Shown here: one piece after another, positions 33,775-38,143 of the stretch
Layout: each line of letters opens with the position of its first letter
How positions within the stretch are numbered: position 1 is the stretch's first letter
DNA from: Candidatus Saccharimonadales bacterium
Lineage (GTDB): Bacteria; Patescibacteriota; Saccharimonadia; Saccharimonadales; UBA4665
Reading direction: 5' to 3'
NCBI GenBank assembly: GCA_035480095.1
Contig: DATIIC010000019.1
Span: 17,658-81,657, forward strand
DNA length: 64,000 bases
The notes under the pieces: generated by a model
Databases searched by the model: none
What the model was told of the DNA's origin: nothing
Seen by the model: only the letters and a program-made list of their open reading frames with translations
Translations under genes and position numbers: made by a program

Positions 33775-34200
33775 CTACTTCTGGTGGCGGCGTTTGAGGC
33801 CCGCGACTTGGATGCGCACTGCGTGGCGGTCGACGAGCTGCTGGGCGTGCTCCAGGCTGACTTCATCCTTGGCTTCGGCATGCAGCTTCTTGGCGCGTTC
33901 CATGGCGGCTTCGGCCTCGGCGACATTAATGTCGTCGGCGTTGTCGGCTTCATCCACCAACACGCGCAGCTTATTGCCGCTGACTTCGATGACGCCGCCG
34001 CTAATCGCAAAATATTCGCGGCCCCGGTCGGCATCCTTCGGGTCCTTACGCACCGCAATCACACCGGACTTCGCCACGCTGACGAGAGGCATGTGGTCCT
34101 GCAGCACGCCAATCTCGCCATCTTTCGTCGGCAAAATTATCTCATAGGCATCGCCATCAAACTTGGTGCCGCTTAGCGCAACTAATTGAAAATGAATCAT
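33775..34200 (-). CDS. atpC: F1 ATP synthase epsilon subunit
   Basis: MIHFQLVALSGTKFDGDAYEIILPTKDGEIGVLQDHMPL... is typical of epsilon. It is the last gene of the operon. Confidence 0.9.
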   Translation of the reverse strand: MIHFQLVALSGTKFDGDAYEIILPTKDGEIGVLQDHMPLVSVAKSGVIAVRKDPKDADRGREYFAISGGVIEVSGNKLRVLVDEADNADDINVAEAEAAMERAKKLHAEAKDEVSLEHAQQLVDRHAVRIQVAGLKRRHQK

Positions 34201-34448
34201 TGTTCACTCCTTACAGCTATCAGGCCCGCCGCCTCGACCGTCTGTAAACGGCCTCGGACGGCAGTTAACACGGTTTCTTCGGTATGCAGGGCTGTGGTTG
34301 GAATTGTATCCTGAAAAGCAGGCGCCCCGTTCCAGTGCGTATATTCCTTGCCATCTGGACCGACGTAGTACGGGTCAAACACTACGGCCAAATTGCCGCT
34401 GCATTCAAAGGTGTGGCCGTCCGTATCCGGGTGCGCCTCGCAACCCAT
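34197..34448 (-). CDS. hypothetical 83-aa protein inserted between atpD and atpC
   Basis: It starts 7 nt after the atpD stop. Its TGA overlaps the atpC ATG (ATGA). The atpC AAGGAG lies inside its 3' end. Confidence 0.5.
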   Translation of the reverse strand: MGCEAHPDTDGHTFECSGNLAVVFDPYYVGPDGKEYTHWNGAPAFQDTIPTTALHTEETVLTAVRGRLQTVEAAGLIAVRSEQ

Positions 34449-34455
34449 CGTAAAC

Positions 34456-35862
34456 CTACTTCGCCGCCTTGGCTGCTTTTACGACGTCTTCGATGGTGCC
34501 TTTTAGGTTAAAGGCAGTTTCCGGGATGTCGTCGTGCTTGCCGTCCAGGATTTCCTGGAAGCCCTTGATGGTGTCGGCTAGCTTTACATATTGGCCGGGG
34601 TTGTTGGTGAACTGCTCGGCCACGAAGAACGGTTGGCTAAAGAAGCGCTGGATGCGGCGGGCGCGGGCCACCAGCTGCTTGTCTTCCTCGCTCAGTTCTT
34701 CCATGCCCAAGATGGCGATGATGTCCTGCAGGTCTTTGTAGCGCTGTAATACGCGCTGCACTTCGCGGGCCACCTTGTAGTGCTCTTCGCCCACGATTTC
34801 GGGGTCAAGGATGGTGCTGGTACTGTCCAGCGGGTCAACGGCCGGGTAGATGCCGATTTCGGTCAGGGCCCGGTTCAGGTTGATGGTGCTGTCCAGGTGG
34901 GCAAACACCGTAGCCGGCGCCGGGTCGGTAAAGTCGTCGACCGGCACGTACACCGCTTGGACCGAAGTAATCGAGCCTTGGCGGGTTGAAGTAATGCGCT
35001 CTTGTAACAGGCCCATTTCTTCGGCCAGGTTCGGCTGGTAGCCTACCGCGGAAGGCAAGCGGCCCAGCAGGGCGGACACCTCGGCGCCAGCCTGGGTGTA
35101 GCGGAAGATGTTGTCGACGAACAACAGCACGTCGGAACCTTTGTCGCGGAAGCCTTCGGCGATAGTCAGGCCGGAAAGCGCCACACGCAGGCGAGCGCCT
35201 GGCGGCTCGTTCATCTGGCCGAACACCAGGGAGGTGTTCTTGATTACGCCCGACTCTTCCATTTCGTGGTAGAGGTCGTTGCCTTCGCGGGTGCGCTCGC
35301 CCACGCCAGCGAACACACTGTAACCGCTGTGGAATTTGGCGATGTTGTTAATCAGCTCCTGGATGAGCACCGTCTTGCCGACGCCGGCACCGCCGAACAG
35401 GCCGGCTTTACCACCCTTGGTCATCGGGCAGATGAGGTCGATGACCTTGATGCCGGTTTCCAGGATTTCCACGCTGCCGGACTGGTCAGACAGGGCAGGC
35501 GGCACGCGGTGGATGGGAGCGTGGTTCTTAAATGTGCCGCCCTTACCGTCAATTGGCTCACCGGTAACGTTGAACATGCGGCCCAGCGTTTCATCGCCAA
35601 CCGGCACGGAAATCGGCTTGCCGGTGTCAGTGACTTCGGCGCCGCGGCGCAGGCCATCGGTACTGCCGAGCGATACCGCACGCACACTAGATTCACTTAA
35701 GTGTTGTGCGACTTCCAGGGTCAGTTCCTGGTCGCCATTCTGTACCTTCAGCGCGTTATAAATCGCGGGCAGCGTGTCTGTTGTAAATTGTACATCAATC
35801 ACCACACCCACGATTTGGGTAATCTTTCCTGCCTTAGTTTTTTCTTTCGTTGCTGTTGCCAT
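34456..35862 (-). CDS. atpD: F1 ATP synthase beta subunit
   Basis: This 468-aa protein has Walker [10 protein letters not shown] and conserved beta-subunit blocks throughout. Confidence 0.97.
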
Positions 35863-36077
35863 TATGCTTCTCCTTGGTTCGGTTGTGTATGTAGGGTATC
35901 GGTCACCTTATCCGGTTCACGTCCATGCAGTGCTAAGCGCGAAAGTAGTACCGCTTCAGATGGGAAATTAGCCGTCACCACTATAGCGTCTGGCCGTCCC
36001 GGCTCATCATCCACATCTTCAGCCAGCGAATCGTGGCCAAAGACAACCAGGCCATTGTAGGTATAGCGACTACCCAT
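35862..36077 (-). CDS. hypothetical 71-aa protein upstream of atpD (94 aa if started at 36146)
   Basis: The ATG at 36077 overlaps the upstream ORF's stop (ATGGGTAG). Its TAA overlaps the atpD ATG (TAATG). The atpD AAGGAG lies inside its 3' end. Confidence 0.45.
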
Positions 36078-36345: not shown

Positions 36346-36770
36346 TAGTTCGGCACCTCCGTGCCTGCGGCGGCTGCCCGTTCAAGCGTCTCACGTATCA
36401 GTGAAGGACTGTTGCCCACATGCTGCACCAGCGCTGGGTCAAACCCCGGGTCAAAACCCGGGTACAGTGCCCGCTCCATGGGGTGCTGTGAAAACACAGG
36501 CTTACCTTCACGAATCGCGTGGGCCATAGCAGTAATAATCCCTTGTTCGAAGGGCAAGTGCTCGGCACCGGCCACAACCAATAGCCCATCTGTCTGCTCT
36601 ATCGCATCAACGGTTTTCATGGCCACATCCCAGGCGTCACCCTGGCTACCAACCTGCACCGCCTCATAGCCAGTCGTTTTTAGTAAGGCTTTCTTCCACA
36701 CGCGGCGCATGGCAGCCTCTCCTCTACCCGCTTCACGGGGTACTAGCAGTGCTAGGAGTGTCTCGCTCAT
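36345..36770 (-). CDS. hypothetical 141-aa protein in the atpG-atpD gap (weak Rossmann-like / nucleoside-deoxyribosyltransferase-like pattern)
   Basis: It has an ATGA overlap with the upstream ORF. The pattern LLALLVP...TDGLLVVAG...FEQGIITAMAHAIREGKPVF only loosely recalls that fold. Confidence 0.5.
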   Translation of the reverse strand: MSETLLALLVPREAGRGEAAMRRVWKKALLKTTGYEAVQVGSQGDAWDVAMKTVDAIEQTDGLLVVAGAEHLPFEQGIITAMAHAIREGKPVFSQHPMERALYPGFDPGFDPALVQHVGNSPSLIRETLERAAAAGTEVPN

Positions 36771-36994
36771 CCGTCCAGTGCCTCCGCGTCGCCGGTGATT
36801 TCCGGTCCGGTAAAATCGGGCCCGGGCTGTCCGAGCGTGGCACTACCTATATTCCCTGGGTGAAAACGTCCCCCTCCTATCAGCGGATCGAATAGCAACT
36901 GGGGATGCAATTCGGGTGGAGGTGGATCTCTGTCAATCAGATAGTATGAACCCCCTTCCATGCTAACCAGCCGCTCGTTACCCTGACTCATCAT
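36767..36994 (-). CDS. hypothetical 75-aa Pro/Gly-rich protein in the atpG-atpD gap
   Basis: It has an ATGA overlap with the atpG stop. Confidence 0.4.
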   Translation of the reverse strand: MMSQGNERLVSMEGGSYYLIDRDPPPPELHPQLLFDPLIGGGRFHPGNIGSATLGQPGPDFTGPEITGDAEALDG

Positions 36995-37854
36995 TTCAAT
37001 GCCTCCGCGCCGCCGGTGATTTCGGCCAGTTCCTGGGTGATGGCCGCCTGGCGGGCGGTGTTTAGCTCCAGGGTGTAGTCGTCTATCAGTTCTTTGGCGT
37101 TGTCGGTGGCGTTCTTCATGGCTACCATGCGCATGGCGTGCTCGCTGGCCAAAGATTCCAGGACGGCTTGCCAGATTTGGGCTTCAATCAGGCGGATGGC
37201 GACTTGGTCTACCACGGTTTCAACATCTGGTTCGAAGTTGCTGATGGTGTTTTCGGCGGCGACGCCTTCCAGTTTTTGGGCTGGCAGCAGCGGTGCGCTC
37301 AAAGCCTGCTGCGAAACAGTGGATTTGAACTTGGTGTACAGCAGGCGCACATCGTCGACCGCTTCAGATTTGTATTGCTCGATGACTGTGTTCAGCAGCG
37401 GCCGGACGGCATTAGCCGTCGGCTGGTCGCCAAAGGCAGGGTAGGCGGCCAGCAGGTCAACTCCGTGCAGCCGGCGCACGAACTGCGCGCCGCGGCTGCC
37501 GACCACAATCACGTGGCTGGCAATTTTAGCGGCTTGGTCGTCTTTGAGGCCTTGGGTCAGTTGCTTCAAAACGTTGGCGTTGTAGGCGCCGGCCAGGCCG
37601 CTGTTGCTAGTGATGACCACGTACAGACGGTTCTTGACCTCGCGCTTGGCGAACAACGGCTGCCGTTCCACTTCACTGATGCCGCTCAGACGCGTCAGCA
37701 GTTCCGTAGCCAGCTCGGCATACGCCCGTGAAGCCTGCGCGTACTCCTGCGCCCGGCGCAGTTTGCTGGCGCTCACCAACTGCATGGCCTTGGTAATCTG
37801 CCGCGTGTTCTTGATGGACTTAATCCGCCGCTTCAGTACGATAGTGCTAGCCAT
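36991..37854 (-). CDS. atpG: F1 ATP synthase gamma subunit
   Basis: This 287-aa protein has N- and C-terminal helices typical of gamma (IKSIKNTRQITKAMQLVSASKLRRAQ ... ITQELAEITGGAEAL). Confidence 0.95.
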   Translation of the reverse strand: MASTIVLKRRIKSIKNTRQITKAMQLVSASKLRRAQEYAQASRAYAELATELLTRLSGISEVERQPLFAKREVKNRLYVVITSNSGLAGAYNANVLKQLTQGLKDDQAAKIASHVIVVGSRGAQFVRRLHGVDLLAAYPAFGDQPTANAVRPLLNTVIEQYKSEAVDDVRLLYTKFKSTVSQQALSAPLLPAQKLEGVAAENTISNFEPDVETVVDQVAIRLIEAQIWQAVLESLASEHAMRMVAMKNATDNAKELIDDYTLELNTARQAAITQELAEITGGAEALK

Positions 37855-38143
37855 TTGCGCCCCCTAAATCTCTTATTTCAGTAAGCAGCCGAAGAAACCT
37901 ATTTTGAAGGTCAGTCATAGGAGCAACCTCTTGAGGTGGCCACTCGGGCGTATCCCAGCCGACGTGTCCCCGTATCTGTAGTAGTTGACACAGCACAGTT
38001 CGCGCACCAAGGATGCGGCCGGTCCGCTCATCTTCGGTAAGGCCGGGTGGCAGCTCCATACTCCAAGCCAGCTCCTGCACCAAGTTTACGGTGGTGGGAT
38101 ATCGACTACGGTCTGGGGCTGCTGGTTGCTCAGGATCTACCAT
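37847..38143 (-). CDS. hypothetical 98-aa protein inserted between atpA and atpG
   Basis: It starts 5 nt after the atpA stop. Its stop overlaps the atpG start by 8 nt (AATGGCTAG). Confidence 0.45.
   Translation of the reverse strand: MVDPEQPAAPDRSRYPTTVNLVQELAWSMELPPGLTEDERTGRILGARTVLCQLLQIRGHVGWDTPEWPPQEVAPMTDLQNRFLRLLTEIRDLGGANG

Follow-up and report, generated by a model that had tools for sequence, protein, structure and literature searches.

What are six small open reading frames (ORFs) doing inside an ATP synthase operon? The atpAGDC block is among the most conserved bacterial gene arrangements. In a stretch of 64,000 nucleotides (nt) from a Candidatus Saccharimonadales bacterium (contig DATIIC010000019.1 of assembly GCA_035480095.1; the whole stretch is called the window here) its three junctions, atpA-atpG (A-G), atpG-atpD (G-D) and atpD-atpC (D-C), are filled by six ORFs on the same strand, named by their lengths in amino acids (aa). 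The initial annotation had offered two readings, either that the ORFs encode lineage-specific subunits of the ATP synthase with an accessory, regulatory or assembly role, or that they form a cassette using the expression of an essential operon. The second is the better fit to the occupancy of the junctions, the turnover of their contents, codon usage, junction duplications and selection, while the first is unsupported as a general explanation, five of the six ORFs having no homologue in about 165 related operons. On balance, and with some reserve, we favour a reading in which the three junctions are a hotspot for passenger genes, mostly orphans, that are coupled in translation and are repeatedly inserted, replaced and lost; the six ORFs would be the current occupants.

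The order of the genes on the minus strand, atpZ-B-E-F-H-A-(98)-G-(75)-(141)-(91)-(71)-D-(83)-C, was borne out by the ORF list and the sequence, and all of the stop/start junctions that had been claimed are present in the sequence. Running from atpA (F1 alpha, 38149-39705; ORF list, sequence and Pfam families in the gene calls), whose TAA stop is followed after 5 nt by the ATG of orf98, the A-G gap holds orf98 (37847-38143), the 3′ end of which shares the 8-nt overlap ATGGCTAG (37847-37854) with the start of atpG (F1 gamma, 36991-37854; PF00231, E=6e-89). The G-D gap holds four ORFs. The first, orf75 (36767-36994), is Pro/Gly-rich and disordered-looking and has an ATGA overlap at both ends, with atpG and with orf141 (36345-36770); orf141 meets orf91 (36070-36345) at a TAATG, orf91 shares the 8-nt overlap ATGGGTAG (36070-36077) with orf71 (35862-36077), and orf71 meets atpD (F1 beta, 34456-35862; ORF list and gene calls) at a second TAATG. 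In the D-C gap orf83 (34197-34448) starts 7 nt past the atpD stop and overlaps atpC (F1 epsilon, 33775-34200; PF02823, PF00401) by ATGA. All six inserts were placed from the ORF list and the sequence, and together the junctions comprise two 8-nt overlaps, three of ATGA and two of TAATG. Inspection of the sequence also agreed with the earlier placing of Shine-Dalgarno boxes, each within the 3′ end of the ORF before the gene: the GGGGG of atpG lies in orf98, the AAGGAG of atpD in orf71 and the AAGGAG of atpC in orf83. For orf71 an alternative start at 36146 would give 94 aa; the 71-aa start is better, having a GGGGG box, the ATGGGTAG overlap and the choice of two gene callers, and orf71 is predicted at 71 aa in the related contigs L081 and L087 as well.

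A motif ATGG(C/G)TAG recurs at these borders. It is found at the start of atpG (M-A-S, with an out-of-frame TAG inside) and at the orf91/orf71 junction, and in many relatives it forms the end of atpG (..N-G-stop, with an out-of-frame ATG inside), and it supplies both sides of atpG with an 8-nt stop/start overlap ready for use.

ORFs tile the three gaps more completely than chance predicts. Same-strand ORFs cover 0.98, 1.00 and 0.97 of the A-G, G-D and D-C gaps respectively, while shuffled sequences gave mean coverages of 0.29, 0.50 and 0.20 (P=0.0125, <0.0005 and 0.008). The G-D cassette is reproduced by independent Logan and ENA assemblies (L172, L173, L081) and the D-C insert by other independent assemblies (L088, L090), with orf83 identical across three independent Logan contigs. 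With regard to assembly artefacts, which the initial annotation had raised, the G-D and D-C inserts therefore stand, as independent assemblies agree on them; orf98 is backed by the contig of the metagenome-assembled genome (MAG) alone and was left uncalled as a gene in the NCBI record.

The comparison with relatives covered some 165-170 Saccharimonadales atp loci, labelled L with a number, and counted a gap of at least 150 nt as an insert. These loci came from 80 species-representative genomes, with AtpG 67-85% identical, 80 metagenome contigs and several contigs found through single proteins; L086, an AtpG cluster representative, was left out, its alignment ending in the middle of atpG, and is probably chimeric. 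In a first set such gaps were present at A-G in 20/78 loci, at G-D in 42/78 and at D-C in 10/73, compared with 2/65 at E-F, 1/66 at F-H and 1/68 at H-A. The larger set of 170 loci gave 36/142 (25%), 71/127 (56%) and 22/113 (19%) for the three F1 junctions, and among conserved non-atp neighbours (four gene pairs) 2/78 had a gap of this size. Nearly all of the relatives' gaps are at least 95% covered by same-strand ORFs with the same overlap motifs. The architecture is seen in dozens of genomes, closed chromosomes included, and about half of the relatives, close ones among them, run the operon without inserts. The A-G, G-D and D-C junctions are a Saccharimonadales-wide hotspot with diverse cargo and rapid turnover: the same flanked sites are empty in some genomes and carry unrelated cargo in others, at frequencies far above those of other junctions.

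How rapid the turnover is can be seen among the nearest relatives. In the closest, L091 (AtpG 94% identical), the ORF at A-G is an unrelated one of 103 aa and the ORF past atpG is different as well, and in L002, L003, L092, L093 and L097 (AtpG 80-84%) every junction is empty. For pairs of loci with filled G-D junctions at 85-90% AtpG identity, the contents were unrelated in 21 and related in 3. A tblastn search with orf98, orf75, orf91, orf71 and orf83 gave no match in any of the approximately 165 related operons. Synteny in related genomes had been proposed as a check on the ORFs, and the outcome is that the inserts are not conserved, the nearest relatives having different ORFs or none; judged by these sequence comparisons, the inserts are not conserved with the enzyme. 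Clustering of 154 junction ORFs with jackhmmer gave 19 small families and 85 singletons, and all families except that of the 23S rRNA intervening sequence (IVS) were confined to one junction. The only matches that Pfam gave among the junction ORFs were 23S_rRNA_IVP (4), Transgly_assoc (3), NUDIX (1) and a gamma-tail copy (1).

Several occupants of the relatives' gaps can be described individually. In L062 a translationally coupled NUDIX hydrolase gene lies between atpG and atpD (L062:9223-9669). A GlsB/YeaQ-type membrane family of nine members, also translationally coupled, is found between atpD and atpC (L007:3894-4181, L008:10481-10744, L025:8221-8490). Some gaps are filled by non-coding elements (L015:7878-8000, L021:7856-8000, L029:7900-8000, L032:2512-2578, L005:11195-11240) built of the short tandem motifs CAAATTG, CAATGGT and CACATTT, some of which form long hairpins (-45.6 kcal/mol in L021).

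The purifying selection that the initial annotation had proposed to look for was seen in four of the ORFs, orf98 and orf83 lacking an informative comparator. The comparator for the four was L081, a 1482-bp ENA contig that is 93% identical and carries part of orf75, then orf141, orf91, orf71 and the start of atpD. Ratios of nonsynonymous to synonymous substitution rates (dN/dS) were 0.22 for orf75, 0.15 for orf141, 0.16 for orf91 and 0.21 for orf71, and about 0.19 when pooled (20 nonsynonymous against 34 synonymous changes, Fisher p=1.4e-9). The four ORFs orf75, orf141, orf91 and orf71 are under purifying selection. Junction-ORF families of the relatives gave dN/dS values of 0.10-0.5 where measurable.

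The codon usage of the inserts sets them apart from the genes around them. It had been stated that their composition resembles that of the flanking atp genes and argued from this that they are not a recent insertion; both the claim and the argument fail at third codon positions. The G+C content at these positions (GC3) is 0.44-0.60 for the inserts (0.44 for orf71, 0.49 for orf98), whereas the atp genes have 0.72-0.76 and long genes in the window 0.68+/-0.08. In composition the inserts have the look of foreign or young sequences. Their codon-usage scores are low, with orf98 having the lowest coding score of the six, yet in each ORF the annotated frame outscores the other five, and GC1 exceeds GC2, as coding sequence would show.

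A trace of how one insert may have arrived is found at orf75. The top direct repeat of the region is 37 nt long and 86% identical, with a score of 24.5 against a shuffle maximum of 12.5, and consists of the atpG 3′ tail copied at the 3′ end of orf75. Copy 1 (36987-37023, minus strand) is the genuine atpG tail, with the conserved gamma C-terminus, a GGAGG box and the ATGA overlap that starts the next gene; copy 2 (36766-36802, minus strand) forms the orf75 3′ end and serves as initiation region for the translation of orf141. The reading frame is kept, orf75 ending in ...PEITGDAEALDG and gamma in ...AEITGGAEALK, and copy 2 matches the atpG tails of many relatives. The orf75 tail and orf141 start align across the junction between the atpG tail and the orf141 homologue of L082, and the ancestral state was therefore atpG-orf141, the body of orf75 having been inserted later with the junction duplicated. 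Comparable duplications of a junction are present in no fewer than three further lineages, in frame and of 56 nt in L039 (about 20 aa of gamma tail), 42 nt in L024 and 19 nt in L005, which makes the 37-nt repeat look like an insertion footprint. In L072 the Shine-Dalgarno box and start of atpD are duplicated instead, again in frame. Junction duplication accompanies some insertions.

Two related ideas were tried and set aside. An origin of orf75 by tandem duplication of the atpG 3′ region was rejected, the 184-nt body having no residual similarity to atpG (z=-0.67). Nor do the inserts in general have a duplicated target site along their outer edges; the duplications are at internal or first-ORF boundaries, in a few lineages.

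From this anatomy a mechanism for the passenger genes can be proposed. The inserts would have no promoter or terminator of their own and would be co-transcribed with the atp genes. A perfect hairpin of 14 bp with a T run behind it, found by repeat search and in the sequence, lies directly past atpC (33732-33761, unstranded) and is likely to be the operon terminator; no comparable structure was found within the operon, where promoter- and terminator-like matches showed no excess over shuffles. Translation would proceed by termination-reinitiation over the 1-, 4- or 8-nt stop/start overlaps, with the 3′ end of each insert supplying the Shine-Dalgarno box of the next gene, so that translation of the downstream essential atp genes would be preserved. 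Arrival would be by illegitimate recombination at a junction, and would duplicate the translation-initiation region there, either the atpG tail or, in one relative, the start of atpD with its Shine-Dalgarno box, so that gamma and the translational coupling would survive the insertion. The products would be expressed passenger, or accessory, proteins under purifying selection and presumably not stoichiometric subunits of the ATP synthase. Their persistence probably comes from guaranteed expression and from the fact that imprecise deletion would hit essential genes, and the conserved flanks may allow cargo to be exchanged by homologous recombination.

Several points weigh against this account. 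Transcription, coupling and protein products are deduced from the DNA, selection was estimated from one close comparator with 54 substitutions in which orf98 and orf83 have no informative counterpart, and the non-atp control consists of four gene pairs. Most inserts of the relatives have no flanking duplication, so the mechanism is documented for a minority. The idea of homologous recombination leaves it unexplained that H-A (1-2%) is colder than D-C (14-19%), and the sole direct hints of exchange are divergence jumps within atpD in L081 and L089, which are possibly chimeras. The confinement of the hotspot to F1 junctions and the position-specific families would also fit a function linked to F1.

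L081 and L089 are 95-100% identical over the inserts and about 80-85% identical inside atpD (window 35480-35760 and 34567-34714), the differences inside atpD being almost all synonymous. These jumps could be either recombination breakpoints or chimeric metagenome contigs. As evidence of horizontal cassette exchange they were downgraded, since short contigs can be chimeric.

The leading alternative sees the inserts as modulators, inhibitors or assembly factors of F1 that are specific to a lineage and evolve quickly, that are encoded beside the subunits on which they would act (alpha, gamma, beta, epsilon), and whose divergence hides homology between lineages; we regard it as doubtful. It accounts well for the clustering of inserts at the three F1 junctions and their scarcity at Fo/delta junctions and in neighbouring operons, for families that keep to a single junction, the mobile IVS family excepted, and for purifying selection on the ORFs. 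It is harder to reconcile with the roughly half of relatives, close ones included, that are free of inserts, with NUDIX, GlsB/YeaQ-type and 23S-rRNA-IVS proteins at the same sites, and with 85/154 ORFs that are singletons even under jackhmmer.

Searches for families returned little on what the proteins are. The initial annotation had recognised none of the six, and this holds: Pfam, NCBIfam, PHROGs and PADLOC gave zero matches for all of them, the threshold for Pfam and NCBIfam being E<=1 and atpG, atpC and atpZ being recognised in the same run. Pfam and NCBIfam showed no resemblance of the six to epsilon, zeta, IF1, Atp11/12 or AtpI-type families, a point against the F1-modulator reading, and defence and toxin-antitoxin profiles (PADLOC, Pfam, PHROGs) were not matched. 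The homologue search with orf98 was empty, as were viral-contig scans of orf98 and orf83. A concatenated search with orf75, orf91, orf71 and orf83 was also empty but missed even their own clusters at >90% identity and is an unreliable negative; the sole homologues of orf91 are >90% identical sequences. An AlphaFold2 (AF2) model of orf98 from the single sequence has three helices, with a predicted local distance difference test (pLDDT) of 67, and Foldseek matched it to generic helical bundles only (E>1). By eye, an 'EWP...P' C-terminal motif is common to orf98 and a seven-member A-G family, as an F1 modulator class might have it; membership of orf98 in that family was rejected, the match to its hidden Markov model (HMM) not being significant (E=0.42) and the 'EWP' motif having been seen by eye only.

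Of the six ORFs only orf141 has a family. A HMMER search of 1.84e9 representatives found only P0003 (96%), P0012, P0013 and P0016 (31-39%), and further members were found in L036 and L071. The family comprises about six divergent members, with identities of 28-42% across lineages, and every one lies between atpG and atpD. With this recurrent family, kept to one position, orf141 stands apart from the other occupants, and it may have an F1-related role. Family identity against that of AtpD gave a Spearman coefficient of -0.43 (p=0.11), which says little as the identities are saturated. The AF2 model of orf141 (pLDDT 81, predicted template modelling score 0.80) has a flavodoxin-like three-layer alpha/beta fold. 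The best Foldseek matches, with TMq of 0.55-0.60 to the nucleoside deoxyribosyltransferase (NDT) 8pqs, are not significant (E>=1.8e-3), and scores like those of NDT were also reached by type II dehydroquinase and flavodoxins. PF05014 matched weakly in 2/7 family members (best E=0.0039, under the Pfam threshold), orf141 itself had no PF05014 match, and a PDB profile search returned nothing relevant. An alignment by eye would place Ala, Leu or His of the family at the nucleophilic Glu of the NDT motif 'D.G...E.G.A..GK'. The NDT-like pattern noted earlier in the 141-aa protein therefore stands at most as a resemblance of predicted fold, from AF2 and Foldseek, and not as membership of the family, PF05014 being below threshold.

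Several of the first G-D ORFs, namely orf75 and those of L039 and L024, end by repeating the C-terminal motif of gamma in frame. This motif is normally inside the alpha3-beta3 hexamer, and the copies could be taken to favour action on F1, although the need for a Shine-Dalgarno box and an overlap explains them equally well. A bolder form of the proposal, that the junction ORFs of Saccharibacteria are a new class of rapidly diversifying, position-specific F1-ATPase modulators that tune or block synthesis or hydrolysis in the episymbiont, seems to us rather improbable. If it were true, turnover would reflect conflict or niche adaptation and not passive hitchhiking.

It is similarly improbable that the ORFs are translated spacers or proto-genes, open only for the sake of coupling and against polarity, with peptides that have no function. 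Exact filling of the gaps with coupling at both ends, here and in relatives, would be expected of such spacers, as would the prevalence of orphans with low codon adaptation, the disordered-looking Pro/Gly-rich orf75, and orf98 with its poor coding score, which the depositor left uncalled. The dN/dS of about 0.15-0.22 in four ORFs and 0.1-0.5 in relatives' families speaks against it, as do the confident fold predicted for orf141 (pLDDT 81) and the recognisable enzymes and membrane proteins at the same sites; GC1>GC2 and a best-of-six annotated frame also indicate protein-coding constraint.

A defined mobile-element system targeting the junctions, such as integron-like cassettes, miniature inverted-repeat transposable elements or insertion sequences, or elements of the 23S-rRNA-IVS type, is a very unlikely source of the six ORFs. 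Such elements do exist in relatives, in which PF05635 (23S_rRNA_IVP) genes with long inverted repeats are found at G-D and D-C (L001:5760-6225, L004:8860-9350, L004:10760-11256, L005:10786-11240), the repeats having predicted duplex energies of -26 to -47 kcal/mol; palindromic tandem-repeat elements in the gaps of other relatives, and a solo hairpin at D-C of L001, point the same way. The inserts of the window have no terminal inverted repeats or attC-like structure, no second copy in the 64-kb window or in the 170 loci, and no match to PF05635, PHROGs or PADLOC. Nor is there an integrase or transposase nearby, the neighbours being Dab, MIP, helicase and glutaredoxin genes, and the viral-contig scans of orf98 and orf83 turned up no viral relatives. 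The solo hairpin (L001:7615-7725) is an ORF-less copy of the IVS hairpin. Stems of this type are RNase III substrates in rRNA, and because of this IVS-type stems could be cleavage sites in atp mRNA as well.

That the inserted segments are artefacts of assembly or binning is improbable to the point of being negligible. In its favour are the origin of the sequence in a MAG, the breaks or shifts of identity inside atpG and atpD in short related contigs, and the single assembly behind orf98. Against it, the G-D and D-C inserts recur in assemblies made independently from three runs and from one other project, the same architecture is seen in dozens of genomes, closed chromosomes among them, and the reading frames and overlaps are precise.

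The remainder of the operon contains no such inserts. The upstream block atpZ-atpB-atpE-atpF-atpH (39706-42380, minus strand) has zero inserted ORFs; within it lie atpZ (41940-42380; ORF list, sequence and Pfam) and, from the ORF list, sequence and the record's gene calls, atpB (41083-41940), atpE (40690-40923), atpF (40144-40683) and atpH (39706-40140), all on the minus strand. The public record has a 53-aa ORF (40925-41086, minus strand) without a family match in the 159-nt atpB-atpE spacer, which is probably spurious; this spacer has a median length of 55 nt in relatives and reaches 185 nt, 159 nt being typical. The operon is flanked by opposite-strand genes without a Pfam match (32114-33289, 33375-33713, 42415-43209 and 43595-44047, all on the plus strand, encoding 391, 112, 264 and 150 aa in that order), so that orphan genes abound not only within the operon but also beside it. 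Downstream, at 27380-31792 on the minus strand, is an inorganic-carbon uptake pair of DabA (PF10070, E=2e-206) and a DabB-like protein (Proton_antipo), with a MIP channel gene (26454-27275) after it; the pair and the channel are unexpected in a reduced Saccharibacteria genome.

If the passenger-gene reading is right, a whole order of Saccharibacteria (TM7), which belong to the candidate phyla radiation, uses the three atpAGDC junctions as a landing site with fast turnover, the coupling being unbroken, which was unexpected; literature searches found no description of small-gene inserts at these atp junctions. The locus would offer a natural system for the capture of new genes, foreign or de novo, into essential operons, with junction duplication as a testable mechanism, for the tolerance of a stoichiometrically tuned operon to insertion, and for conserved genes as possible recombination anchors that spread cargo between species. 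Occupants with an action on F1, if there are any, would count as new regulators of the energy metabolism of ultra-small symbionts. Operon context alone is no ground for annotating such ORFs as ATP-synthase subunits.

Known systems share some of these features. In hotspots flanked by core genes, such as genome plasticity regions and the defence islands of Proteobacteria, the same sites likewise carry unrelated cargo that is present or absent among close relatives. The atp case differs in lying inside an essential conserved operon, with cargo of one to four genes of 70-180 aa, without an integrase, att site or tRNA, and with cargo that is translationally coupled and not autonomous. Phage 'morons' and the hypervariable small ORFs of phages are also small orphans of deviant composition and rapid turnover between conserved co-transcribed genes. 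Morons usually have their own promoter and terminator, however, while the atp inserts have no such signals above chance and would have to draw on the atp promoter for their expression; the host is also cellular, and viral relatives were not found.

The regulators of F-type ATPases, such as the epsilon C-terminal domain, alphaproteobacterial zeta, mitochondrial IF1, cyanobacterial AtpTheta and AtpI/AtpZ, are small and lineage-restricted and are sometimes encoded in or near atp operons. They are conserved within clades, unlike the inserts, which differ between genomes with 94% identical gamma, and the Pfam and NCBIfam searches gave no sequence similarity between them and the inserts. For orf141 the likeness to NDT and PF05014 would be in the predicted fold, and the difference in the sub-threshold match and, by eye, the Glu position. 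Rickettsia palindromic elements, a repeated family, insert in frame within genes, where the foreign DNA is tolerated and translation preserved; the atp inserts are unique, lie between genes and are separate ORFs. The 23S rRNA IVS elements, in which a PF05635 four-helix bundle is accompanied by inverted repeats, are unlike the six ORFs of the window, which have neither PF05635 nor flanking inverted repeats, but they occupy the same junctions in L001, L004, L005 and L111, and these junctions therefore accept selfish insertions.

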